Source: Myxococcales bacterium SG8_38 | Lineage (GTDB): Bacteria; Myxococcota_A; Polyangia; Polyangiales; Houyiibacteriaceae | Assembly: GCA_001303415.1 (NCBI GenBank) | Contig: LJTN01000010.1 | Location: forward strand, 2,140 to 66,139 | DNA: 64,000 nt | Reading direction: 5' to 3' | Part shown: positions 4,923 through 17,739 of the stretch, one piece after another | Numbering within the stretch: the stretch's first letter is position 1 | Layout of the letters: every line of letters begins with the position of its first letter | Notes under the pieces: generated by a model | Database searches by the model: none | Seen by the model: the letters and a program-made list of their open reading frames with translations, nothing else | Told to the model about the DNA's origin: nothing | Translations under genes and position numbers: made by a program

Positions 4923-5798
4923 TCAGTACAGGAGCTCGACCCAGCGGCCGCCCGCGGTGAGCTCGGCCTTGCGTCGCGCCCATTTGTCCTCTGAGCCGGC
5001 GATCTCGCTGAACGCCTGATCGAGCTCGTCGCGCATCTTTTCGAGCCCGGCCACGTACACGTAGGTGTTCGGTTGCTCGAGAAGCTTCCATAGCTCCTTT
5101 CCGCGCTGGGAGAGCGCGCCCTCCCAATCGATGGGAGCGGCCCAGGCGGGCCTCGGGCTCAGCGCCTTGAATGCCTGGAAGGTTTCCTTGTCGTAATATT
5201 GTGCAAAGTCGTCCCGTTCGTCATTCATGTAGAGGAGCTCGAGGCCGCTTCGAGCCCCATAGAAGAGCGTGATGGTGCCCTTCCAGTCCGGGACGTTCTT
5301 GTACAGGTGCTTCACGAAGGCCCGGAATGGAGCGATTCCCGTGCCAGTCCCGATGAGGATCAAGTTGGCGTCCATCTCTTCGGGAACGTCGAATGCCAAA
5401 CCGTATGGGCCGGACATGGTGATGCTGTCGCCGGGCGCCAAATCACACAGATAGTTGCTGGCGACGCCCGGATACTCCTCCCCGCTGTACTTGTCGACGT
5501 AGCTCGTGCGGCGAACGACGATCTTGATCCGGGGAAGCCCTGCGGCTTCGCGATCCGGAAGGTCGGCCACGCTGTAAAGACGAAAGTGATGCTCTTGCCC
5601 GAACTCCTTGGCCCCCGGCGCGAGCACGCCGACATTTTGGCCGAGCTCGAGCTCGAAGCCCGGCTTCTCAATTTCCAATGTCAGCTCGCGGACCTCGATA
5701 TCAGACGCTTCCGGCGTGATCCGCTCGCTGGCGACCACGGTGGCCTGGAACCGTCGCCGGGTGTCGTAGTCTTCAAGATGGGTGACTGCAGTATTCAT
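4923..5798 (-). CDS. Ferredoxin-NADP+ reductase, plant/plastidic type
   Basis: RLYSVAD (FAD), GVASNYLC, GTGTGIAPFR (NADP), YVYVAG, C-terminal Tyr. ATGA overlap with the upstream small ORF. Confidence 0.88.
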   Translation of the reverse strand: MNTAVTHLEDYDTRRRFQATVVASERITPEASDIEVRELTLEIEKPGFELELGQNVGVLAPGAKEFGQEHHFRLYSVADLPDREAAGLPRIKIVVRRTSYVDKYSGEEYPGVASNYLCDLAPGDSITMSGPYGLAFDVPEEMDANLILIGTGTGIAPFRAFVKHLYKNVPDWKGTITLFYGARSGLELLYMNDERDDFAQYYDKETFQAFKALSPRPAWAAPIDWEGALSQRGKELWKLLEQPNTYVYVAGLEKMRDELDQAFSEIAGSEDKWARRKAELTAGGRWVELLY

Positions 5799-6010
5799 CG
5801 CATCTCCTCCTCGGCCTCACACGTTCCGCTGTCGGTTCCTTCGTGGCATCGTTGCGAACGGCCGCAATCGCCGCAGCCGGGGCGTCCTGCAAGCGCGTCG
5901 GGGTCATCTCCCGCGTCGGGAAACGATTTCCTCCAGGCGCGTTGCACGCCGACCCATGCTGCGGACAACAGCACGAACGCTCCCACCCCGATGATGTAGT
6001 GGTGCAACAT
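5795..6010 (-). CDS. Small single-TM membrane protein with a 4-Cys C-terminal motif (NqrM-like candidate)
   Basis: 71 aa from ATG 6010, preceded by GGAGG 8 nt upstream. One TM (IIGVGAFVLLSAAWVGV), then GCGDCGRSQRCHEGTDSGTC. Sits between rnfA and the FNR gene with tight junctions. Confidence 0.5.
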   Translation of the reverse strand: MLHHYIIGVGAFVLLSAAWVGVQRAWRKSFPDAGDDPDALAGRPGCGDCGRSQRCHEGTDSGTCEAEEEMR

Positions 6011-6014
6011 CGTC

Positions 6015-6596
6015 CTAACCTCCAAGCCCCCCGAAGCCCATGAAGGTCACCGAAAGCAGCCCGGCGAGCATCAACGCCATCGCCGTGCCCTTCGTCACGT
6101 CTGGCACCTCCGCGAGATCGAGCTTCTCACGCAGGCCGGCCATGAGCACCAGGGCTAGGGTAAACCCGGCTCCTGCGCCAAGCGCGTAGACGATGGACTG
6201 CACGAAGCCATACCCCTTGTTGGTTTGAAAAAGCGCCAACCCGAGGATGGCGCAATTGGTGGTGATGAGGGGCAAGAAGATTCCGAGGGCGCGGAAGAGG
6301 GCCGGGCTGAACTTCTTGATGAACATCTCGACCAGTTGCACCGTAGATGCGATCACGGCGATGAACGAGATGAGCTTGAGGTACGGCGCGTCGATCGCGA
6401 CCAGCAGCGCCTGAATTCCGAAGGCACAGACGGAGCTCACCAGCATGACGAACGTCACCGCGCCCCCCATGCGCGTGGCCGTCTCGAGCTTCGATGAAAC
6501 GCCGAGGAAAGGGCAAATGCCAAGGAAGTACGCCAACACGAAGTTGTTGACGAGTGAGGCGTTGATGAAGATCGACCACAGGGACTCCTGATTCAT
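6015..6596 (-). CDS. rnfA: Rnf electron transport complex subunit A
   Basis: 193 aa polytopic protein of the RnfA/NqrE family (NNFVLAYFLGICPFLG, LPLITTNCAILG). GGAGG SD. Start trimmed from ORF 6015-7382. Confidence 0.93.
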   Translation of the reverse strand: MNQESLWSIFINASLVNNFVLAYFLGICPFLGVSSKLETATRMGGAVTFVMLVSSVCAFGIQALLVAIDAPYLKLISFIAVIASTVQLVEMFIKKFSPALFRALGIFLPLITTNCAILGLALFQTNKGYGFVQSIVYALGAGAGFTLALVLMAGLREKLDLAEVPDVTKGTAMALMLAGLLSVTFMGFGGLGG

Positions 6597-7249
6597 CGAG
6601 CTGCCTCCTCGGTGAGCGAGAGCGTGGCCGCCCTTTCTCTTTGGGCTTTGCGCTGCTTGATCCAGTTGAAGAGCAGCAGCCAACCGGCCAGCGTGAAGAA
6701 GCCCCCGCTCGGCAGAACCATCACGACCCAATCTTGAAAGGCATCGTGAAACAAGGAAACGCCGAAAAGCGACCCGGCGCCGAATATCTCCCGCACCGCG
6801 CCGATCGAAAAGAGGGCGAAGGCAAATCCGACTCCCATGCCCAGGCCGTCCATGGTGGATCGTGCGATCGTGTTCTTCGAGGCAAAGGCCTCGGCCCGGC
6901 CGAGGATCAGGCAATTGACCACGATGAGGGAGATGAAGGCGCCAAGCGCCTTGTAGAGGTCGAGGCTGATCGCCTGGATCACGTAGTCCACCAGGGTGAC
7001 GAAGGTCGCGATGACCAATATGTAGGTCGCGATGCGTACCTCTTTCGGAATGAAGCTCCTGAGCGATGACACCACCATGTTGGACATCACCAGCACGAAT
7101 GCCGTGGCCAAACCCATGGCCAGCGCGTTTCTCGCCGTGTTGGATACCGCCAAGGCAGGGCACATCCCCAGCACTTGAACGAACACGGGGTTGTCCTTCC
7201 AAAGGCCCTTGATGAACTCGTCCGTGGTGGTCTTGGTGGAGACTGCCAT
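6593..7249 (-). CDS. rnfE: Rnf electron transport complex subunit E
   Basis: 218 aa of the RnfE/NqrD family (NPVFVQVLGMCPALAVS, SLIVVNCLILGRAEAFA). GGGAGG SD. 4-nt overlap with rnfA. Confidence 0.93.
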   Translation of the reverse strand: MAVSTKTTTDEFIKGLWKDNPVFVQVLGMCPALAVSNTARNALAMGLATAFVLVMSNMVVSSLRSFIPKEVRIATYILVIATFVTLVDYVIQAISLDLYKALGAFISLIVVNCLILGRAEAFASKNTIARSTMDGLGMGVGFAFALFSIGAVREIFGAGSLFGVSLFHDAFQDWVVMVLPSGGFFTLAGWLLLFNWIKQRKAQRERAATLSLTEEAAR

Positions 7250-7252
7250 GGT

Positions 7253-7945
7253 CTACTCGCCTCCCTGGAAGTCCTGCAGATTGCGTTGGATGCGTGGAAT
7301 CCATTGCTGGGCGCTTTGGTTCAGGATGTTGGCAATGGCCTCCGAGGAGATCGTGGCGCCCGTGATGCCATCTACCTCCCATGGTTGCGTCTTGTTGCCA
7401 TGCCTGACCGGTACGATGGGATGCGCCAGGGACGATTGGTCTTGCGCCAGCGAGACGTCGAGGCGCTCGAAGTTCTCGAGGAAGCCGGGGTCAGTCTCGA
7501 TCTTGTCGCCGAGCCCCGGCGTTTCCTTGCTCTCGAGCACCTGCGTTCCAATGATGGCTTCGTCGGCAAAGGAGTAGCCGTAGATCAGGCGGATGACGTC
7601 CTGGTAACCCATGCCTTGAGCTTCCACCGCGAGGCCGACGAGCTTCTGGTCATCGTCGTAGCCCGCGTAGACCAGCGGCTCGCCGTCGCCGCCCGCGGCG
7701 CTCCCGTCTACGGGTGCGAAATCGCCGGAGTCGCGGAGGCGAAAGGTGGTACTGGCCGTAGCGTCAGGCAAAACCTGGAAGATGGCGCTCTGCAACGCCT
7801 CTGCCTTGTTGCGCTCGATGACCGGCCGTGTCGCTTGAAACACGCCCACGATGAGGAGACCGCAACAGACACCCACGCCGACCATGGCGCGGTACATGTG
7901 CCAGGTGCTGGTCGGCGCCGGGCTGGCGGGCAACGCTCGGCTCAC
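7253..7945 (-). CDS. rnfG: Rnf electron transport complex subunit G (FMN-binding)
   Basis: N-terminal TM, FMN_bind domain, flavinylation motif GITGATISS. GTG 7945 has AAGGAGG 7 nt upstream and overlaps the rnfD stop (GTGA). Alternative ATG at 7897. Confidence 0.85.
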   Translation of the reverse strand: MSRALPASPAPTSTWHMYRAMVGVGVCCGLLIVGVFQATRPVIERNKAEALQSAIFQVLPDATASTTFRLRDSGDFAPVDGSAAGGDGEPLVYAGYDDDQKLVGLAVEAQGMGYQDVIRLIYGYSFADEAIIGTQVLESKETPGLGDKIETDPGFLENFERLDVSLAQDQSSLAHPIVPVRHGNKTQPWEVDGITGATISSEAIANILNQSAQQWIPRIQRNLQDFQGGE

Positions 7946-8967
7946 GATGCGGCCTCCTTGGTTGCCGTGCCGTAAACCCGCGGCCGGAACCAGCGATCGA
8001 GGTGCGGGGTGACCGCGTTGCCGAGAAGAATGGCGTACATCACGCCCTCCGGAAGGCCGCCCCAGGTCCGGATCACCACGGTCACCACGCCGATCAGCGC
8101 TCCGTAGAGATAGCAACCGATCGAAGTCATGGGCGAGCCCACCATGTCGCTCGCCATGAACATCGCGCCGAGCATCAGCCCTCCCGAGAAGATCATGAAG
8201 ACCGGCGATGCATACCGGGTCGGGTCCACGAGATGGAGGGCGCCGCTCAGCACGAACACCGCGGCGATGATCGAAACCGGGATCCGCCAGTTCATCATGT
8301 TGCGAGCGATGAGATAGAGGCCACCCAAGATGATGAGGATGCTCGAGGTCTCGCCCGCCGAGCCGCTCGTGAAGCCCGTGGCGAGGTCAGCAACGGCGGT
8401 GGTTTCTCGGCTGAACTTCCACAGCGCGAGCGGGGTGGCGCTGGTGACGGCGTCGACCGTCGGCTCGGTGAAGGGCAAGGTCAAGGTGGACGACGGCAAC
8501 GAGGTGAAACGACCCGCGGTAAAACCAGCGATCCATGTGGTCATGGCCACGGGAAAAGCCGCCTGGAGCACGGCACGGCCCACCAACGCGGGATTGAACG
8601 TGTTGTAGCCCAAGCCGCCGAACAAGGCCTTGCCCATGGCCACGCAGATGACGCCTCCGACGGCAACCATCCACAGTGGAAGGCTCGGTGGAAGCGTGAG
8701 GCCGTAGAGGAGTCCGGTGATCGTCACCGACCAGTCTCCGATGGTGGTGGGCTTGCCCGTTGCGCGGCAGATGAGGTGCTCGGTCAACACGCACGATACC
8801 AGCGCCATCGAGAGCGTCAGCAGGCCGGCGAGACCGAACGCAAAGATGGCGAACGCCGTGACGGGAAGCAGCGCGAGCACCACGTTGAACATGATGCTGT
8901 CCACGCTGTAGCCGCTCAGGATGTGTGGCGAGGTGCGGATCTCGAGTGTTTTGCCCGGCGCCGGCAT
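7942..8967 (-). CDS. rnfD: Rnf electron transport complex subunit D
   Basis: 341 aa polytopic protein of the RnfD/NqrB family (TSPHI, NPALVGRA, VDAVTSATPL flavin site, FMASDMV). ATG 8967 overlaps the rnfC stop. Trimmed from ORF 7942-9813. Confidence 0.93.
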   Translation of the reverse strand: MPAPGKTLEIRTSPHILSGYSVDSIMFNVVLALLPVTAFAIFAFGLAGLLTLSMALVSCVLTEHLICRATGKPTTIGDWSVTITGLLYGLTLPPSLPLWMVAVGGVICVAMGKALFGGLGYNTFNPALVGRAVLQAAFPVAMTTWIAGFTAGRFTSLPSSTLTLPFTEPTVDAVTSATPLALWKFSRETTAVADLATGFTSGSAGETSSILIILGGLYLIARNMMNWRIPVSIIAAVFVLSGALHLVDPTRYASPVFMIFSGGLMLGAMFMASDMVGSPMTSIGCYLYGALIGVVTVVIRTWGGLPEGVMYAILLGNAVTPHLDRWFRPRVYGTATKEAAS

Positions 8968-9983
8968 CAGGTGGCTCCCGTCTTGCCGGCCGCCGCCTTG
9001 CGCACTGCGGCCTTCGCGGCACGGAACTGCTGCACCAGCGGGATGTGCGAGGGACAGACGAAAGAGCAGGAGCCGCATTCGAAGCAATCCATCAGGTTGT
9101 GTCGCTCGGCCATGACCGAGAACTCTTGGTTGGCTGCCAGCCTGCCTAGAAGCGAGGGGTCGAGGAAGATGGGACAGGCGTCGACGCAGTAGCCGCAGCG
9201 GATGCAGGGGTAGACCGGGCTGTGGGTTCGCTCCGCGGCGGAGTCGGTGAAAGCGGTGACGCCCGACGTGCCCTTGGTGATCGAGATGTCCAGGCTGGAG
9301 GCGGCTCCCCCCATCATCGGTCCACCGAGGAACACACGGTTCACGTCTTCTTCGACCCCCACGTGCTCGAGCAGGAACCGGAGCGGCGTGCCGATGGGGA
9401 TGCGGTAGTTGCCTTTCCGCTTCACGGCAGGCCCTGTCACGGTGATCACCCGCTCCTGGATGCCGCGGCCCAACGGAAGGAGGCGGCCGATCTCTGCGGT
9501 CGTGGCCACGTTGCAACACAGCGCATGAATGTCCAGAGGTAGCCCCCCGGAAGGCACCTCCCGGCCGAGAAGCGCTGCGAACAGCATCTTTTCGGCCCCT
9601 TGAGGGTACTTCACTCGAAGGAGCTCCACCGACCCGTTCAGGTCGCCTGGGAACGTGGCGCGCAGATGCTCCGCTGCATCGGCCTTGTTTGCTTCGACGG
9701 CGATGATGACCTTCTCTGCGCCTGACACTTTGAGTAGGTAGCGGATGCCCACGAAGATGTCGTCGCTTTGCTCGAGCATCACTCTGTGATCGGTCGTGAG
9801 GAACGGCTCGCATTCCGCGCCGTTGATGATGAGCGTGTCGACGAACTTGCCTTCGGGAACTTTGAGCTTGACGTGTGTTGGAAAGGCGGCGCCGCCGAGC
9901 CCCACCACGCCGGCCTCTTGAATCGCAGCGATGATCTCATCGGGCGTCGACGTATCGAGCGGGCAGGGGGTGCCGTCCTCCAC
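8967..9983 (-). CDS. rnfC: RnfC C-terminal module (NADH/FMN-binding fold plus 2x[4Fe-4S]); fragment downstream of in-frame stops
   Basis: GLGGAAFPTHVKL, INGAECEPFLT, CIRCGYCVDACP, CFECGSCSFVCP. The only possible start is GTG 9983, which has no nearby SD. Confidence 0.8.
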   Translation of the reverse strand: MEDGTPCPLDTSTPDEIIAAIQEAGVVGLGGAAFPTHVKLKVPEGKFVDTLIINGAECEPFLTTDHRVMLEQSDDIFVGIRYLLKVSGAEKVIIAVEANKADAAEHLRATFPGDLNGSVELLRVKYPQGAEKMLFAALLGREVPSGGLPLDIHALCCNVATTAEIGRLLPLGRGIQERVITVTGPAVKRKGNYRIPIGTPLRFLLEHVGVEEDVNRVFLGGPMMGGAASSLDISITKGTSGVTAFTDSAAERTHSPVYPCIRCGYCVDACPIFLDPSLLGRLAANQEFSVMAERHNLMDCFECGSCSFVCPSHIPLVQQFRAAKAAVRKAAAGKTGAT

Positions 9984-10013
9984 TTCTTGTGTGGATCCCG
10001 GGAGGGGCTCCTA

Positions 10014-10316
10014 TTACACGGCCGGCACCATGCGGCCGCTGATGCTGGGAGCAAGCGCGATCTTCCGAACGATGCCCGAAGCCGAAGCGTGCATGGAGAC
10101 CGACATGAAGCCGTCCGGGCGCGCAATCCGTTGGCCTCGCCACACCTCTTGGCCTTCTTCCACCACGGGTATCGACGGCGCCCCCATGTGTTGGACCAGG
10201 GGAATGATCAGAAGCGGTGCGAAGGGAAATTGGCGAATGGGCAGCCCACTCGTCTCGTCCTTCGACTCCGGCGGGTGCACCCCATGCCGGAACGTCTTCA
10301 TCCCCAAGAGTCTCAT
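10014..10316 (-). CDS. rnfC: RnfC N-terminal barrel-sandwich domain fragment, ending at TAA-TAG
   Basis: FRHGVHPPESKDET, IIPLVQHMGAPSIPVV, GQRIARPDGFMSVSMHASASG match the RnfC/RsxC N-terminus. Same frame as 8967-9983. Confidence 0.75.
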   Translation of the reverse strand: MRLLGMKTFRHGVHPPESKDETSGLPIRQFPFAPLLIIPLVQHMGAPSIPVVEEGQEVWRGQRIARPDGFMSVSMHASASGIVRKIALAPSISGRMVPAV

Positions 10317-10338: not shown

Positions 10339-13300
10339 TCAGTTGTACTTCTCGCCGCGCTTGATCCACTTCTCGATGCCTTTTTCGCTTCGGTTCCTCG
10401 GCAAGCCGGGGTGGATGACCCGAGCGGTGCATCGCTCTGCGGCCTTCACCAAGTCTTTGTACGACCCTGCCTCGGCATTCTTGATGAAGGCTTTCTTATC
10501 CGCGTTGTACGCGAAGATCTTGGAATTGATCTGGATGCACTCGTCGCAGGCGGTGCAGTTCTCGGTATCGATCCAGGGAGCGAGGTACCCATCCCCAGCA
10601 GCCGCGGCCGACGCCTTCGTGGCTGCAGGTGTCGCCGCGGACGTAGCAGTCGTCGCTACCGTCACGGGCGCTGCAGCGGCCGACGCGATGGCGGGACCGG
10701 GTGAGTCAGCTCCCATGCCAGCGGACCCAGCTCCGGACTCGGCGGCCATCTGCATGAGCTCGGATACGAGCCTGCTGACCACGTCCTGACGAGCCTGTTC
10801 GACCAGCGATTCGGTGGAGGGTTGATCTTGGCCGGCCAGAGATCGGAGCAAGGTCCAGAAGTCACGCCGGTCCTCGCAGGATTCCACGATGGGCTGCGCC
10901 ACCAGCAGTCGCATCAAGTGCCCGTCCTTGTCCACCATCCACACGTACGGAAAATGGCCCTCGCGGTCGTCCTGATCCATGTCTAGGAATTCCGCCAAAG
11001 GCACCATGTTCTCGTTCCAGGTGTCCGGCGGCGCAACACGGAAGTGCTTGCGGAATCGAGTCTCGGTGATGGCGAAGTCCGCAAACGTGAGCGGCAGCTC
11101 CATCTCCTTGTCGACGCCGTCCTCCTTGTACTTGATCCTGTAGGTGGGCCAGTCCTGATCCATGTCCGGATTGCCCTCTAGGTCGAAGCACTCTTGCGGC
11201 GTTTTCCCCGCATCGGGGTTGTATCGAAAAAGCGGATACGCCCTGGACTCCACCGCCAGCTTCGACTGGGCCGCGCTCATGTCGTCGCCGATGCCGTGCT
11301 CGGGTTGGCAGTTGCTATAGAGGTTGAACAGCGCGGGCCGGCGGGCCTTGAGGCCTTGGATGAAGCCTTCAATCATGTGACTCGAATGCGCGATGGTGCT
11401 CTGCATCACGTACGTGGTGCGATGCGCCATCCCGATGAGACCGATCTCCTTTCGTGGCTCCTGCTTGCCCTTAATGGCCTTTCCATACTGAGCCATGTCC
11501 GACACCTGGCCGATGAAACCGGAGGTGCATGCCTGTCCGCCCGTGTTGGAGTAAACCTGCGTGTCGACGACCAGCACCTTGATCGGCTTACCGGACGCCA
11601 TGAGTCGCGAGAGGTTTTGAAAGCCGATGTCGTACATCGCGCCATCGCCGCCCACCGCGACCACCGGCGGGCAGAGCTCCCACTCTTCGTCGCTGAACTG
11701 GCGCCAGTCGAAATAGGTGAAGAACGAATCGTGCTCGACGGGATTGTACTTGCTCTGCAGCTCGAGCTCGGCGATGCGAATGGCTTTGAAGCCATCCGCC
11801 ATCTTGGCCATGTGCCCCTCGAAGATTCCCATTGCCATGGAGGGCGAGTCTTGGAACAAGTGATTGGCCCAGGGGAACGGGTAGGGGTTGAATGGGTAGG
11901 TGCTGCCCCAAACCGAGGTGCAGCCGGTGCTGTTGATCATCCCCATGCTGGTACGGCCGCGGCCCGTTGTTCCTTCGGTGTACTTCCACCTGAGCCTTTC
12001 CAGATCGGCCACGAGCTTGGTCATGCGTCGAAGCCAGTCCTGATCGATGGGCTGAGCTCCTCCCATGCGTTCGATGCGCTCGGCGATCGCAGAGAGTGTG
12101 ACGTCCCGATCGCCGATGTCTTGCATGATCTTCGCCATGACTTCGGGGTCGCCGACATCGATCTCTCCGGCCAGCCGTAGCTGGATGTGCTTCTTCAGCC
12201 GGTCGATGAGGTCGGTGACGTGGCTCAGATGCTTGGTGATCCGCGCCTGCATCAATGCTTCGACGGTTGCGACGAAGAGGTGGATCGCCGTCTTTTCGGA
12301 ACAGCCGAGACACGCGCCGTCGCCGCTGGTAAACGGCAAGTAGTTGCTCTTGTCGAGCAGGATCGACTCGAGGGTTCCGATGCCTTCTTCCAAATCATCG
12401 ACCCGGATGTACTTCTTCGGGGTGGAAGGAAGATCGGTCCACAGATCCCAGTGGTCGCGAAGTCGTTGAACCGACTCCTCCGTCTGCCTCATCGAGCGCA
12501 GCGCATCGTCGTTACATACCTCGACGCACTCCATACACCCCTTGCACGTGTAGGGGTTCACGGTGATCGAAAGCAGGCCCCCGCTTCCGGACTGTTCCTG
12601 CTCGGGGAGGGTGTAGTGGGGTCGAGTCAGGGCAAACTGGAACCCGTTCAGCTCTTCCTTGAAGTACCCGAGCTCCTTCTTGAGCACGTCCCGCTCGACG
12701 CCTTGAAGCTCGCTTTGCGTAACGGTCTGCTCCATCGCCTGGTCCAGCAGGACTGACACGGAGTCCGTCTCCTTTGACGCCCTGAAGAGAGCATGGAGGT
12801 TGCGCTCCATCACTTTGGCGGCCTTGGGCAGATGCTTGATCTCCGGCGCGTAGCCGTTCTTGCGCACCCGATTCACGACGGTGTCGAGCACTTGACCCAC
12901 CTCGTTCACCAATCCCGGCAGCGCGGTGTCCGGGCAGACCGTGTAGCAATCGCCGCAGGCGGTGCAGTTCTCGGGGACCCACTGAGGATGCTCGAAGCGG
13001 ATTCCGGTCATGTCCCGGAAAAGCGCCGAGGAGGGGGGCATGATGCCCAGCCCGATGAAGGGGTCGGCGAGGTTGTCGTTGCCCATGCCTCGCACGTAAA
13101 AGCTTCCGGTTTGCTCCCAGAAGCGGTGGATGTCGGTCATGGGCGCCTTGCTCTGAGGAAGAGATTTCACCATGAGCGGAAGCTTCAGTCCGGCGCGCTT
13201 TCCCTCGGGCCGGACCTCGTCGATGGGCCCCGGGACGACCTCTCGGACCTCGTCGAAGCCGCGCTTCACAACCCGCATGTTGTCGTCGACGACTCTCTTG

Positions 13301-15354
13301 CCCTTGGAGCCGAACTTTTCTTGGAGCTGGTCGTGGATGGCGTCCAAGAGCTGCTCGTCGGTGAGCCCGGCCTGCTTCATGATCGGCGAGACGGCGAAGA
13401 ACGCGCCCTGGAATGCGATGCCCTGCATTCGGAGCTGCAGATCGGGGTCGGTGGCCTCGTCGCGCGCGATCTTGAAGCCATCCAGGTAGTAGACCTTGAT
13501 CTTCTTGTCGCGAATGATTCGCTGATAGACGGGCGGGATGCTCTCCCACATCTCTTTGGGCGACGCCTTGTCTCCCTGGATGATGAAGACGCCGCCTTCC
13601 TTGAGGCCGGCAAGCGCGTTGGTGTGGCCAAACACGTTCGGGTCCGGTGACAGCACCACGTCGACGTAGAAATACTCGCAGTTGACCTTGATCGGCTCTG
13701 GCGCCGCCGACAGATAATACGTCGTAGGCTGTCCCTTCTTCTCGGAGCCGTACTTGGGGTTCGCCTTGATGTGATAGCCCAGCAAGTCGAACAGCGTCAT
13801 CGCCAGGTTCTTGCCGGTGGTGATGGCGCCCCAGCCGCCGACGGAGTGAAAGCGAACCGTGATGCTGTCCTTGGGCATCAGGTTGGGGTTCTCCGAGCCT
13901 TTCACCACCAGCTCTTTGACCTGAGGATAGGACTCCTCGATCGTCTGTTGATGGATCTCCTGCTTCGGCGTGATGGCCTGGTCCCGGACGAAGTCGATCG
14001 ATAGATAGAAGAGCTTCTTCCGGGCCCCGTCATCGAGCATGTTCTCCACGGCGCCCACCAGGCCTTCGGGTTGCAGATCGCGGCTGCCCATCCCGAAGGA
14101 GCCCGAAAAGAGCGGAGGCGCGTCGTGGAGCGACGTATAGGCAGCAAGCTCCGGGTACGGTGGGTTCTGCGAATCCCTCCCGTTTTCGAGGCACTTGCTC
14201 ACCGTAGCGCGGATCTCCCGCATGAGAGGCAGGTCGGCCGCGAGTGGTTGATCGAGCCGCTCGAGCACCGTGACGCCCCGCTTGCCCCTCAAGATGCGTC
14301 CGATCAGGTCGCTCGGAAACGGTCGGAACATGACCATGTCGACCACGCCCACCTTGAGCCCGCGGGTCTGGCGAAGATAGTCCACCACTGCCTCGGCCGA
14401 TGGGACCATACTTCCCTGGCCCACGATGAGGTAGTCCGCATCGTCGACCCGATACGTCATTACGCGCGCATAGCGACGGCCCGTCAGCGCGTAGTATTCC
14501 TCGAACGCCTGGTCGGTGAGCGCCTGGATGTGATCGAAGAAAAACGGCCGCTGCGCCGCCACGCTCTGCATGTAGGAGTCCTGGTTCTGCACCAGACCGG
14601 ACATCACCGGATTGTCCACGTCCCACAGCAAGGGAATGCGCCGGCGAGTTTCGCCGTATATGATCTTTTGCGCCGCGGTGGGTGTCTCGATGACGTCGTC
14701 CGGACGCCCGAGGTATTCCGCGATGAGCTCGCGCTCAGGCACCATGAGCGATTCGATCAAGTGCGTGGTCAGAAACCCGTCCTGGGCGATGATTCCCGGG
14801 GTGAGAGACAGCTCTGCGATTTTGTGGCTGATGACGTTCAAATCAGCCGCTGCTTGCGCGTTTTTGGCGAACAGTTGGAAGAAGCCCGTGTCATCGACGC
14901 AGTGGTAGTCGTCGTGTCCGGCATGCACGTTGAGGGTGGCCTTGGTCATGGCCCGCGCACCGATGTTGAGGACGTACGTCAGCCGCTTGCCCGCCGCGGC
15001 GTAGAGCGATTCGTGCATGTAGGCGATGCCCTGACCCGACGAGAAGTTCGCGGCGCGCATGCCCGTCATGGACATGCCGGCCGTGACTGCCGCCGCGGCG
15101 TGCTCGCCCTCAGGCTCGATGAAGATCAACGGGCGCCCCGACACGTTGATGTGTCCGGCTGCGGCGGCCTCCGCCCACAGCTCGCCCATTTGTGTCGACG
15201 GCGTGATCGGATAGGCGCCCGCGGCGTCGCTCGATTCACGCTCGCACATGATGACCGCGGTGTTGCCATCGAGCGCGTCCCGTGTGCCGGGGTACTTGAA
15301 CTGGCTCTGGGCGTCTTTCGCGATGTTCTTTTTGCCGAAGAATCGTGGAGACAT
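10339..15354 (-). CDS. nifJ: Pyruvate:ferredoxin (flavodoxin) oxidoreductase, single-polypeptide NifJ/YdbK type, enlarged (1671 aa) with a C-terminal ferredoxin domain
   Basis: PFOR domains I-VII are colinear: YPITPST, GGWGAITTGK, CTACGDCYTVCP and CKGCMECVEVC, GDGACLGC, GGDGAMYDIG...VYSNTGGQ (thiamine pyrophosphate, TPP). These are followed by an Ala/Thr-rich linker and CTACDEC...C. ATG 15354 (MSPRFF) lies within ORF 10339-15366. Confidence 0.9.
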   Translation of the reverse strand: MSPRFFGKKNIAKDAQSQFKYPGTRDALDGNTAVIMCERESSDAAGAYPITPSTQMGELWAEAAAAGHINVSGRPLIFIEPEGEHAAAAVTAGMSMTGMRAANFSSGQGIAYMHESLYAAAGKRLTYVLNIGARAMTKATLNVHAGHDDYHCVDDTGFFQLFAKNAQAAADLNVISHKIAELSLTPGIIAQDGFLTTHLIESLMVPERELIAEYLGRPDDVIETPTAAQKIIYGETRRRIPLLWDVDNPVMSGLVQNQDSYMQSVAAQRPFFFDHIQALTDQAFEEYYALTGRRYARVMTYRVDDADYLIVGQGSMVPSAEAVVDYLRQTRGLKVGVVDMVMFRPFPSDLIGRILRGKRGVTVLERLDQPLAADLPLMREIRATVSKCLENGRDSQNPPYPELAAYTSLHDAPPLFSGSFGMGSRDLQPEGLVGAVENMLDDGARKKLFYLSIDFVRDQAITPKQEIHQQTIEESYPQVKELVVKGSENPNLMPKDSITVRFHSVGGWGAITTGKNLAMTLFDLLGYHIKANPKYGSEKKGQPTTYYLSAAPEPIKVNCEYFYVDVVLSPDPNVFGHTNALAGLKEGGVFIIQGDKASPKEMWESIPPVYQRIIRDKKIKVYYLDGFKIARDEATDPDLQLRMQGIAFQGAFFAVSPIMKQAGLTDEQLLDAIHDQLQEKFGSKGKRVVDDNMRVVKRGFDEVREVVPGPIDEVRPEGKRAGLKLPLMVKSLPQSKAPMTDIHRFWEQTGSFYVRGMGNDNLADPFIGLGIMPPSSALFRDMTGIRFEHPQWVPENCTACGDCYTVCPDTALPGLVNEVGQVLDTVVNRVRKNGYAPEIKHLPKAAKVMERNLHALFRASKETDSVSVLLDQAMEQTVTQSELQGVERDVLKKELGYFKEELNGFQFALTRPHYTLPEQEQSGSGGLLSITVNPYTCKGCMECVEVCNDDALRSMRQTEESVQRLRDHWDLWTDLPSTPKKYIRVDDLEEGIGTLESILLDKSNYLPFTSGDGACLGCSEKTAIHLFVATVEALMQARITKHLSHVTDLIDRLKKHIQLRLAGEIDVGDPEVMAKIMQDIGDRDVTLSAIAERIERMGGAQPIDQDWLRRMTKLVADLERLRWKYTEGTTGRGRTSMGMINSTGCTSVWGSTYPFNPYPFPWANHLFQDSPSMAMGIFEGHMAKMADGFKAIRIAELELQSKYNPVEHDSFFTYFDWRQFSDEEWELCPPVVAVGGDGAMYDIGFQNLSRLMASGKPIKVLVVDTQVYSNTGGQACTSGFIGQVSDMAQYGKAIKGKQEPRKEIGLIGMAHRTTYVMQSTIAHSSHMIEGFIQGLKARRPALFNLYSNCQPEHGIGDDMSAAQSKLAVESRAYPLFRYNPDAGKTPQECFDLEGNPDMDQDWPTYRIKYKEDGVDKEMELPLTFADFAITETRFRKHFRVAPPDTWNENMVPLAEFLDMDQDDREGHFPYVWMVDKDGHLMRLLVAQPIVESCEDRRDFWTLLRSLAGQDQPSTESLVEQARQDVVSRLVSELMQMAAESGAGSAGMGADSPGPAIASAAAAPVTVATTATSAATPAATKASAAAAGDGYLAPWIDTENCTACDECIQINSKIFAYNADKKAFIKNAEAGSYKDLVKAAERCTARVIHPGLPRNRSEKGIEKWIKRGEKYN

Positions 15355-15385
15355 CGAAATCACCAATCAGGCTCTCGCCTCTTGA

Positions 15386-16252
15386 CTAGGTCGGGGCGTC
15401 GCGAAGCGTGCCCTTACGAATGATCTTCTTGGCTGCCGGCCCCTTCACCGGCCCAACCTTGGCATCGATCCAGACGATAGCCCCTGTGGGGCATCGTTCA
15501 ATTGGAGCGCGGGTCTGATGTGGCCTGCTGTAGTCCACCACCGGAAGGTTGTTCCGGATGGTCACGAGCCCCGGGGGCGCGTCCATCTCGCAGCGGCCGC
15601 AGGCGGTGCAAGCGACCTCGCAGTCTTCAAGGATGTCGTCGCCGGCTTCGAGAGAGCTACAGGCGACCCATAATCGATGACTCTGCTTGTGGAGGGAAAA
15701 CAGGTCCTTCGGGCATGCCTCGACGCAGTCCCCGCACGCGGTGCACTTGGCCTCGTCGACGACCGGAAGGTCGTGCGCGTTCATGTGGATGGCATCGAAG
15801 TCGCAGACTTCGTAGCAGTCTCCGAAACCGAGGCAGCCCCAGAAGCAGCCTTTGCCACCGCCGGCCACCCGAGCAGCTGCGCCGCAGCTCTGCTCCCCGT
15901 GGTATGTGGCGTGGTTACGGGCGACGTTCGTGCCTCCCGCGCAGGCGAGCCGAGCCACCAGCTTCTCCTCTGCGCCGACGTCGACGCCCAAGAATCTCGC
16001 GAGCTCTGATCTCTCCTCGTCGGAGCTCACCGTGCACTTTCCCGGTAGCGCGTCGCCCCGGATCAGGGCTTCGGCGAACGGGCGGCACCCGGGGAAACCG
16101 CATGCGCCGCAGTTGGCGTGGGGAAGCATGTCCTCCACCACGTCGATTCGCGGGTCCTCGTAGACGTGGAGCTTCTTGTTCGCCAGGACCAACGCCGTGG
16201 CCAGGATGATTGTGAGTCCGCTGAGGGCGGCAACCGCCGTTAGAAACAGCAT
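15386..16252 (-). CDS. rnfB: Rnf electron transport complex subunit B (polyferredoxin)
   Basis: N-terminal TM (MLFLTAVAALSGLTIIL), CGACGFPGCRPFAEA Fe-S domain, then CTACGDCVEACP and CTACGRC ferredoxin motifs. Trimmed from ORF 15386-16495. Confidence 0.85.
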   Translation of the reverse strand: MLFLTAVAALSGLTIILATALVLANKKLHVYEDPRIDVVEDMLPHANCGACGFPGCRPFAEALIRGDALPGKCTVSSDEERSELARFLGVDVGAEEKLVARLACAGGTNVARNHATYHGEQSCGAAARVAGGGKGCFWGCLGFGDCYEVCDFDAIHMNAHDLPVVDEAKCTACGDCVEACPKDLFSLHKQSHRLWVACSSLEAGDDILEDCEVACTACGRCEMDAPPGLVTIRNNLPVVDYSRPHQTRAPIERCPTGAIVWIDAKVGPVKGPAAKKIIRKGTLRDAPT

Positions 16253-16257
16253 GAGAG

Positions 16258-17739
16258 TCAGTTTTGTGGTTCGATGCCGGTCAAGCGTGCAACGAGCTTG
16301 CGCACCGCGGAGGCCACCGCAGCACGCTCGCGGCTCGTCGCGTCCTTCTCCATGTTCTGCCGCAGGCTTTCGATCTGTGCGTCTCGCTCGGCGCCGAGCT
16401 CCCTCTGCAGCGTCGTCCGGGTGGTGTTCACGTGAGGATTGTCGATTCCCGAGATCTCCCGGAGCGTCTGCCACAGATGGAGGCGCTCCGCACACTGTGC
16501 CGCGAGCTTACGGGAAACGACCTTGCGAACGATGGTCCCCTCCTCGGCGGCAAGCGAGATGAAGGGGAGCTTGCCCACCTGCTGGTGTCGCGAGAGCCTG
16601 AGAAAGTCAACCAATGGAACGAGCGTGTCGGTGCGCTCCGGCGGGTCGGCGAGCTCCGTGGCGAGCTCGGGCTCGGAGGCGGCGAAGTGCGCCAACGTGA
16701 AGGGCTCATCGACTTCGACAGGCTCTCCCTGAGAATCACGGCCGGTGAGCTTGTCCGTGGTCCAAAGGACATCCACCGAAGGATTCGAGGAGAGATCGAA
16801 GCACATGACGAATCGGTCGTCGCGATCGGGATCGTACACGCACATCGGAACGGCTCGGGCACGGACGGCCCGCTCCGCGCGTGTTTGAAATGCATTCTCC
16901 GCTTCGCCGTGCCGCGGGCAAAACACCGAAATCACGCCCGGCCGCGGAACGGTCAGCGCCTGGGAGAGCTGCGCCTGAAAGCCAGATGCGGCCGAATGGG
17001 TCTGAAGTAAGTAGACGCCGCGCATGGCCAGGGGCAGCGTTTCGATGGTCATCCTCGAGGGCACGGCGGTGCCTCCGGCTCCCGATGCTGCCTCGCACAC
17101 GCTCGACCGGAGCGCGAGGACCTTGATTGGCATGCCAGTTTCGAGCAGCGCCATGACACTGCGCAGCCGCGCGCCGTCGCAGCCATCCAGGCGCGCGATC
17201 ACCAGAAACGGAGGACAGGCTCGAAGCTCCCCGGGCCCCAGCTGCCGCCAGTCGAAGTCGGCAAAGCCCGCATCGTGGACTTGGGTATCGTACTTGGCGC
17301 GGATCTCCAGTTGGGCGATCCGCACGGCCCGAAAAACCTGGGCCAGCTGGTTGAAGTGCGCCTCGGCGCGCTCATGAATTTCACCATGGTTCGTGTCGAG
17401 CTCGATGAGGGCGCGATCGAGGGGAACGTCCGGCCACGCCTCCTTCAGCTCAACGAGCTTCGGAATGAGCTCTCGCACGCGTACGAGCCGCTCGGGCGGC
17501 ATCGCCCGGGAGCGCGTGCTCTTTCCGAGCACCTGGGACAACGAATCGACATCGAGGCTCGCGGCAGCAAGAGGCCCGAGCGCGCTCTGCAAGCGGTCCG
17601 GCTCGTGACCGTGGCGATGGTACTCGTCGAGGCGGAGCAGGTTTTCGAGCCCGTCGACGGTTTCGGCCAGAGTTTCGCCAAGGGCGGCGCAATGGCGGCG
17701 CCAGACATCTGCGGCGGGTTGGAGGATCTGCTCTTTCAT
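16258..17739 (-). CDS. PFOR domain VI/VII-like protein lacking TPP and Fe-S motifs (hypothetical)
   Basis: 493 aa, colinear with residues ~1030-1508 of the adjacent PFOR (FRAVRIAQLEIRAKY vs FKAIRIAELELQSKY; FADFDWRQL vs FTYFDWRQF; MPIKVLAL vs KPIKVLVV; LVPLVDFL vs MVPLAEFL). GGDG...NTGGQ is replaced by ARLDGCDG...SSV. Confidence 0.75.
   Translation of the reverse strand: MKEQILQPAADVWRRHCAALGETLAETVDGLENLLRLDEYHRHGHEPDRLQSALGPLAAASLDVDSLSQVLGKSTRSRAMPPERLVRVRELIPKLVELKEAWPDVPLDRALIELDTNHGEIHERAEAHFNQLAQVFRAVRIAQLEIRAKYDTQVHDAGFADFDWRQLGPGELRACPPFLVIARLDGCDGARLRSVMALLETGMPIKVLALRSSVCEAASGAGGTAVPSRMTIETLPLAMRGVYLLQTHSAASGFQAQLSQALTVPRPGVISVFCPRHGEAENAFQTRAERAVRARAVPMCVYDPDRDDRFVMCFDLSSNPSVDVLWTTDKLTGRDSQGEPVEVDEPFTLAHFAASEPELATELADPPERTDTLVPLVDFLRLSRHQQVGKLPFISLAAEEGTIVRKVVSRKLAAQCAERLHLWQTLREISGIDNPHVNTTRTTLQRELGAERDAQIESLRQNMEKDATSRERAAVASAVRKLVARLTGIEPQN

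Follow-up and report, generated by a model that had tools for sequence, protein, structure and literature searches.

The rnfC gene, which encodes a subunit indispensable to the membrane-bound redox pump Rnf, carries two adjacent stop codons, TAA and TAG, within its reading frame in an uncultured member of the Polyangiales (Myxococcota), in an operon that otherwise looks complete. This raises the question of whether the gene has recently been broken, is still read in two pieces or by recoding, or merely appears interrupted because of a technical error. We addressed this question for a stretch of 64,000 nucleotides, here called the window, from a MAG of 3.62 Mb (105 contigs, 92% complete, 63% GC), which had been read before from its letters alone (the preliminary description). 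On the basis of sequence comparisons, we consider it likely that the window holds a genuine and very recent loss-of-function allele of rnfC, present in one Polyangiales population and most likely created by a clustered mutation in place.

The interrupted rnfC gene and its operon

The locus is a co-directional cluster comprising an rnfB-like gene, a gene for a PFOR-like protein of 1675 aa, rnfC, rnfD, rnfG, rnfE, rnfA, a 71-aa ORF and an FNR-like gene. The neighbours of rnfC (rnfD, rnfG, rnfE, rnfA and rnfB) are those of an Rnf operon, and their order is identical on a contig of the Logan assemblies. All features lie on the minus strand and are given in the direction of reading:

15386-16495, minus strand: rnfB-like gene, open (Pfam)
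10339-15366, minus strand: gene for the 1675-aa PFOR-like protein, open (Pfam; residues 919-1675 compared with the sister lineage)
8967-10316, minus strand: whole rnfC, 449 codons plus TGA, broken at codons 101-102 (alignment with RnfC chains of the PDB, Pfam)
10014-10316, minus strand: 5' ORF encoding 100 aa, which cover the barrel-sandwich domain RnfC_N except for the end of the last strand (PF13375, positions 2-94 of the 101 in the profile)
10011-10016, minus strand: tandem in-frame stops TAA (10016-10014) and TAG (10013-10011), replacing the conserved codons for Tyr101 and Leu102
9984-10010, minus strand: nine codons, EPLPGSTQE, from the stops to the first possible restart codon; conserved coding sequence rather than spacer, without a usable SD
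8967-9983, minus strand: 3' fragment ORF of 338 aa, starting from GTG 9983, with the NADH/FMN-binding Complex1_51K domain, SLBB and two CxxCxxCxxxCP 4Fe-4S motifs (Pfam)
7942-8967, minus strand: rnfD, intact, 95.6% identical to the sister lineage and without stops
7253-7945, minus strand: rnfG, intact (Pfam, sister comparison)
6593-7249, minus strand: rnfE, intact (Pfam, sister comparison)
6015-6596, minus strand: rnfA, intact (Pfam, sister comparison)
5795-6010, minus strand: 71-aa ORF, intact (sister comparison)
4923-5798, minus strand: FNR-like reductase, intact (Pfam, sister comparison)

The PFOR-like gene between rnfB and rnfC ends in a C-terminal ferredoxin domain. Downstream of it the sister lineage has the same gene order, with the FNR-like reductase after rnfA. 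Genuine starts in the operon are preceded by an SD 6-8 nt upstream, with AAGGAGG for rnfG, GGGAGG for rnfE, GAGGAGG for rnfA and GAGGAGGAG for the FNR-like gene. The ATG of rnfD overlaps the stop codon of rnfC (ATGA-type coupling), and its SD is weak.

Around the break, the minus strand reads ...ATG GTG CCG GCC GTG TAA TAG GAG CCC CTC CCG GGA TCC ACA CAA GAA GTG GAG.... The ORFs 10014-10316 and 8967-9983 share one frame and, when joined, give 447 sense codons and two stops, in agreement with the length of 449 codons claimed before. An uninterrupted frame of about 440-500 codons, as expected for RnfC, is therefore missing from the window gene. The first ORF matches RnfC_N (PF13375) with an E-value of 5.5e-27 over residues 8-100, and the second matches Complex1_51K (PF01512, 7.4e-45), SLBB (PF10531) and the Fer4/4Fe-4S dicluster families. 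Together they show the architecture of RnfC, namely a Nuo51-type NADH/FMN domain with GLGGAAFPT, followed by SLBB and then by the two CxxCxxCxxxCP motifs; the translation contains the motifs CIRCGYCVDACP and CFECGSCSFVCP.

RnfC chains of solved complexes (7zc6_C, 9eri_C and 8ahx_C) match the joined gene collinearly over its full length (E-values from 2e-104 to 3e-86), and in these chains the position of the stops is occupied by the strand 'AVIIEN' or 'SVVIES'. According to an AlphaFold model of RnfC, which is moderate (pLDDT 65) and served for secondary structure only, residues 96-104 form a beta-strand, followed by coil over residues 105-124 and, from residue 125, by the first helix of the FMN domain. 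The two ORFs in one frame, the complementary Pfam halves and the end-to-end alignment thus bear out the preliminary description, in which the stops split an otherwise intact rnfC. The gene product resembles the RnfC/RsxC proteins of Clostridium tetanomorphum (7ZC6), Acetobacterium woodii (9ERI) and Azotobacter vinelandii (8AHX) in domains, motifs and operon, but differs from these systems in the interruption at codons 101-102 and in the giant PFOR-like gene located between rnfB and rnfC, the latter being shared with its relatives. The interrupted gene is the sole rnfC copy in the MAG, and the RnfC of the sister lineage (G122) is 96% identical to it.

Presence of the stops in independent assemblies

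Among the explanations offered before was an artefact of assembly or sequencing. A Logan contig from run SRR29904085 matches 7 kb of the window at 100% identity, TAATAG included, and a Logan contig from run SRR29904083 carries the 100-aa gene and, 30 nt further on, the 338-aa gene. Overall, the exact split products of 100 aa and 338 aa were found on three Logan contigs from at least two runs. Because Logan assembles each run separately and with an assembler differing from that of the MAG, an artefact of MAG assembly or polishing is largely excluded, and a random sequencing error behind TAATAG is very unlikely.

Controls across the genome were clean as well. Internal stops were absent from the conserved domains of 38 ABC_tran and 36 Pkinase matches in the same genome. 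A tblastn search with 275 ORFs, taken from 400 kb of the relative G015, returned, as the only stops in the middle of bona fide genes, the rnfC pair and one in an IS transposase. This IS-type transposase (rve-like, PRSPWQNPYCER), located on contig C3 of the same genome at about 12859-13179 on the minus strand, has a stop in place of a conserved Trp. The hexamer TAATAG is rare in the genome, with 87 copies on both strands compared with about 467 expected from base composition. Furthermore, we scanned for tandem stops with 90 or more open codons on each side (n = 77) and filtered them by GC content at the codon positions; rnfC was the only one of the 77 sites with genuine coding sequence on both sides. 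The tandem stops in rnfC therefore go beyond what chance would give. The sole other candidate passing the filter, C69:7643, was rejected as an antisense frame. Plain scans for pairs of ORFs in the same frame are too noisy at 63% GC, where long antisense frames occur, and Pfam, tblastn and the GC filter were used instead.

A technical cause of another kind, such as a systematic sequencing error, a mixed-strain consensus or a minority variant promoted to the consensus, appears quite improbable to us. It is true that the genome is a MAG of 105 contigs and 92% completeness whose support consists of assemblies, that the agreeing runs have adjacent accessions and probably a common sample origin and chemistry, and that a stop in the same codon at the end of a contig from another lineage (L023, see below) could signal a context-specific error. 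Against this stand the identical double stop obtained with two assemblers from at least two runs, embedded in 7 kb of 100% identity, and the clean record of all other conserved genes tested; in addition, two specific substitutions 2 nt apart are atypical of a consensus-level error. Given the shared split in the Logan assemblies and the genome controls, the earlier suggestion of an artefact can largely be set aside.

Sense codons at the stop site in related lineages

The preliminary description had proposed an alignment of rnfC orthologs from close relatives, and all of them proved to be open at the stop site. In a codon alignment with 19 orthologs, no gap was found at this position and the stops sit on the Tyr-Leu codons. 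Among the 18 relatives from the same genus or close to it, 17 have Tyr-Leu and one has Tyr-Ile, and a distant ortholog has Ile-Leu. For the first codon the relatives have TAT or TAC, and for the second CTG, CTC or TTG. The combination TAT TTG was seen in L003 and L088 and TAC CTC in the sister lineage, the other members of its clade carrying TAC CTG or TAT CTC. A stop at the site was found in none of the same-genus orthologs, neither among the 17 of a first sample nor among the 36 of an order-level sample.

We extended this comparison with the pattern GGNCGNATGGTNCCNGCNGTNTANNNNGARCC, in which the first codon may be Tyr or a stop and the second is left free, to JGI metagenome contigs and a genome collection of 185,579 species. 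The 87 matching stretches (39 + 48) include none with a stop at the site, and their second codon encodes Leu in 84 cases, Ile in two and Val in one. In an ML tree built on the 840 nt upstream of the stop site, the window is placed beside L109, a Polyangiales MAG, within a clade of eight with a support of 100%; the other seven members have an intact rnfC. The positions of the stops are thus sense codons in all of these orthologs, the closest included, as in a young pseudogene.

Defects at other places of rnfC were seen in G177, G286, G252 and G249, none of them at the stop site of the window. G177 has a TAG beyond residue 431, in the C-terminal tail, and in G286 and G252 the gene is cut by runs of 100 N. 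In G249 (L133, G249:C16:18500-21500) rnfC is distributed over three frames (residues 1-50, 47-314 and 316-440), corresponding to two frameshifts; this long-read MAG contains either a second rnfC pseudogene of the genus or indel errors of the assembly. Within the same order, the domain match of a 503-aa RnfC_N frame (G124:C8:133338-133532) is interrupted by a single in-frame TGA, which could reflect selenocysteine, a pseudogene or an error.

Mutational origin of the tandem stops

The alignment suggests that the codons for Tyr101 and Leu102 became TAA and TAG by changes in place, no bases being inserted or deleted. We agree with the preliminary description that two adjacent stops cannot come from one substitution. 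Its proposal of a 6-nt insertion or replacement does not fit the codon alignment, in which the length is unchanged and the stops fall exactly on the Tyr-Leu codons. Such an event is also unnecessary, because two T>A transversions, at a distance of 2 nt, turn TAT TTG into TAA TAG. As the sister clade has TAC CTS, more than two changes may be needed, and three or four base changes, or a prior synonymous step from CTG to TTG, are possible.

One clustered multi-nucleotide mutation would be the most likely source of these changes, and two separate hits the less likely one. There is room for at most about 10 neutral substitutions in rnfC since the break, and a second independent hit changing TTG to TAG would be one of about 4050 single changes, which gives a chance of about 0.25% or less. 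Furthermore, the 15 nt at the stops (window 9999-10016, minus strand) differ from the sister lineage at 6 positions, more densely than any other part of the gene; these differences include F105L, at a position that is Phe in nine of nine outgroups. From the low chance of a second hit and this density of differences, we infer that the stops go back to a single clustered event. Clustered multi-nucleotide events account for a small percentage of spontaneous mutations.

A local template was searched for, and no direct or inverted match of at least 6 nt covering the changed bases was found within about 650 nt, so that a templated or quasi-palindrome mutation was rejected. The end of a repeat or mobile element was discarded as well, since neither TAATAGGAG nor the 16-mer surrounding the site occurs a second time in the genome. 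Seven nt past the stops, the gene contains CCCGGGATCC (window 9995-10004, minus strand), in which a SmaI and a BamHI site overlap in the manner of a polylinker. An engineered cassette was nevertheless rejected, because these ten bases encode Pro-Gly-Ser, are found identically in the relative L004 and come from environmental metagenome runs. Of the engineered or selected knockout considered in the preliminary description, the engineered half consequently falls away for this environmental MAG with its natural CCCGGGATCC; natural selection of the knockout may have played a part.

Age of the break and selection on the gene

Between the window and L109, rnfC shows a dS of 0.47, a dN of 0.021 and an omega of 0.045, and other pairs of rnfC orthologs have omega values of 0.03-0.06. 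With nine outgroups used for polarisation and the stops excluded, 11 amino-acid changes were assigned to the branch of the window and 8 to that of the sister lineage. Set against their counterparts in the sister lineage, the other operon genes compared (PFOR residues 919-1675, rnfD, rnfG, rnfE, rnfA, the 71-aa ORF and the FNR-like gene) run to full length, with identities of 83-98%. Neither relaxed selection nor further decay was found in rnfC, which has no other lesion, and this pattern is expected only if the break is very recent. Judged in this way, the break appears to be very young in evolutionary terms. Precisely for this reason, the normal omega fits a gene that has just died as well as one that is still working in two pieces.

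The interrupted rnfC shares several traits with young nonsense pseudogenes: its stops lie at positions that are sense codons in the orthologs, the rest of gene and operon is intact, signals of rescue are absent and part of the genus can do without the gene. It differs from them in having two adjacent nonsense codons instead of one. We know of no described rnfC with a double nonsense mutation, and a literature search for rnfC pseudogenes gave nothing useful; the kind of event itself is ordinary.

Translation of the interrupted gene in two pieces or by recoding

Could the gene still be functional in its present form? One possibility is a two-piece RnfC, in which ribosomes would reinitiate at GTG 9983, located 27 nt past the second stop, and the parts of 100 aa and 338 aa would assemble. 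Bacterial ribosomes can reinitiate over such distances between termination and restart. Judging from the domain profile and the structural model, the cut would lie near a domain boundary (position 95 of 101 in the RnfC_N profile, followed by the coil of residues 105-124 and the FMN helix from residue 125), the 3' fragment retains all cofactor motifs, and omega remains low, although the latter is equally expected of a very young break. In these respects the interrupted rnfC is comparable to naturally split, coupled genes, with which it shares two ORFs in the same frame, a cut near a domain boundary and a possible start 27 nt on, but it differs from them in that the split is not conserved, the downstream ORF has neither its own SD nor a conserved start, and conserved residues would be lost. 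A protein made in two pieces would lack eleven residues, eight of them with little or no variation among the orthologs (E103, P104, P106, G107, S108, T109, Q110 and E111), and the N-terminal domain would be cut within its last strand. The preliminary description was right in stating that genes of the cluster have an SD and that GTG 9983 has none within 20 nt; the only similar motif, TAGGAG, is made by the second stop itself and lies 24 nt upstream. In most relatives, this GTG is GTC, ATC, GTT or CTT. A lineage-specific functional split, as had also been considered, finds no support among the relatives: none of them, including the sister lineage, is split (0/36 congeners and 0/87 motif matches at this site). 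Apart from two frames of G592 (204 and 258 aa), the approximately 150 RnfC_N matches in 401 genomes of the phylum lie in frames of about 440 aa or more, and no stand-alone RnfC_N gene is among them. Altogether, we regard a functional two-piece RnfC as improbable.

Recoding by read-through, suppression or bypass is exceedingly improbable. What speaks for a bypass is that an identical Val codon GTG stands directly before the stops (10019-10017) and again, in frame, 33 nt downstream (9983-9981), so that a ribosome might hop from one to the other. Matched take-off and landing codons and a stop directly after take-off are also found in phage T4 gene 60. In contrast to gene 60, the stretch to be skipped in the window is homologous, conserved coding sequence (YLEPxPGSTQE) and not an inserted non-coding gap, there is no stable take-off hairpin (the RNA fold at the site is unremarkable, z = -0.08), and the arrangement is found in no relative. 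Most likely, the match between the two GTG codons is coincidental. Read-through or suppression would have to overcome TAA-TAG, a terminator of the strongest type. Of the 35 tRNAs found in the genome, none is a suppressor with a CTA or TTA anticodon, and in-frame TAA or TAG codons are absent from the other conserved genes tested by tblastn. Judged by the type of codon, the tRNA anticodons and the use in other genes, the combination typical of stop recoding (a recodable codon, the corresponding machinery and reuse elsewhere) is not seen here. Selenocysteine was rejected, as neither stop is TGA.

A stop at the same codon in another lineage

The loss of rnfC function, our preferred reading, leaves one observation that a purely random hit would not predict. 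A further sequence, L023 (ENA ERZ1303544 k141_305477), is a MEGAHIT contig of 863 bp from a different Polyangiales lineage, with rnfC at 559-863. It ends in ...GCC GTC TAA CT and therefore has a TAA at the codon of Tyr101, 2 nt before the end of the contig. Its 100-aa product (P0138) differs from the fragment of the window at 8 residues and falls into the same cluster at 90% identity. L023 lies outside the clade of the window, and its placement beside L006 has a support of only 70%. A stop shared by descent was rejected, because the lineage is outside the supported clade of eight, whose other members are intact. A hit in the same codon is unexpected by chance, with a rough estimate of 1e-3 to 1e-2. 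The simplest reading is that the TAA of L023 is a base error at the low-coverage end of a contig.

Alternatively, Tyr101 could be the site of recurrent knockouts in independent Polyangiales populations, either selected, if the loss of Rnf is advantageous, or favoured by a mutable site. Such a scenario would account for the TAA at the same codon in a lineage outside the clade of the window, and it is in line with the loss of Rnf from about a third of the genus. It depends on a single contig, however, whose stop lies 2-5 nt from the end, where assemblies are least reliable; none of the 87 other sequences has a stop there, and the site shows no repeat, palindrome or special structure. We therefore hold a selected or hotspot knockout to be highly improbable. 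If Tyr101 were indeed a recurrent break point in independent Polyangiales populations, or if RnfC were made in two pieces by reinitiation at the domain boundary, the window would hold a natural variant, on/off or split, of a subunit central to bioenergetics and not a case of random decay; there is but a very slender chance of this.

Consequences for the Rnf complex

We therefore return to a recent loss of rnfC function as the likely explanation. Ribosomes should terminate after residue 100, within the final beta-strand of the barrel-sandwich domain at the N-terminus, and the part of RnfC that binds NADH and FMN and carries the 4Fe-4S clusters would not be made at useful levels. According to solved complexes, RnfC holds the NADH site, FMN and two 4Fe-4S clusters. 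Because of this, termination at residue 100 should abolish electron transfer from ferredoxin to NAD+ and leave the Rnf complex inactive. The break may also reach beyond rnfC itself. With the overlapping start of rnfD, its weak SD and about 1 kb of untranslated rnfC mRNA, the lost coupling and Rho-dependent polarity would probably lower the expression of rnfDGEA and of the FNR-like gene.

Such a loss is plausible in this genus. No rnfC was found in 18 of the 54 genomes that the order-level sample contains for this genus, several of the 18 being 100% complete, which indicates that Rnf belongs to the accessory metabolism of the genus. In kind, the event is already known: it is an ordinary gene break, unusual only as a double hit, and not a new way of building RnfC. 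If the split allele were functional after all, it would mean that the N-terminal domain of RnfC can be supplied in trans, which would be of interest for the structure of Rnf and Nqr, but the evidence does not suggest this.

For annotation, both ORFs should be treated as one rnfC pseudogene, and a working Rnf complex should not be assigned to the MAG, although its korAB-PFOR-rnf-FNR ferredoxin cluster looks complete. Beyond this genome, the allele would represent a clean natural case of a clustered double-nonsense mutation, caught before other decay has set in and in a genus that appears to be losing Rnf repeatedly.
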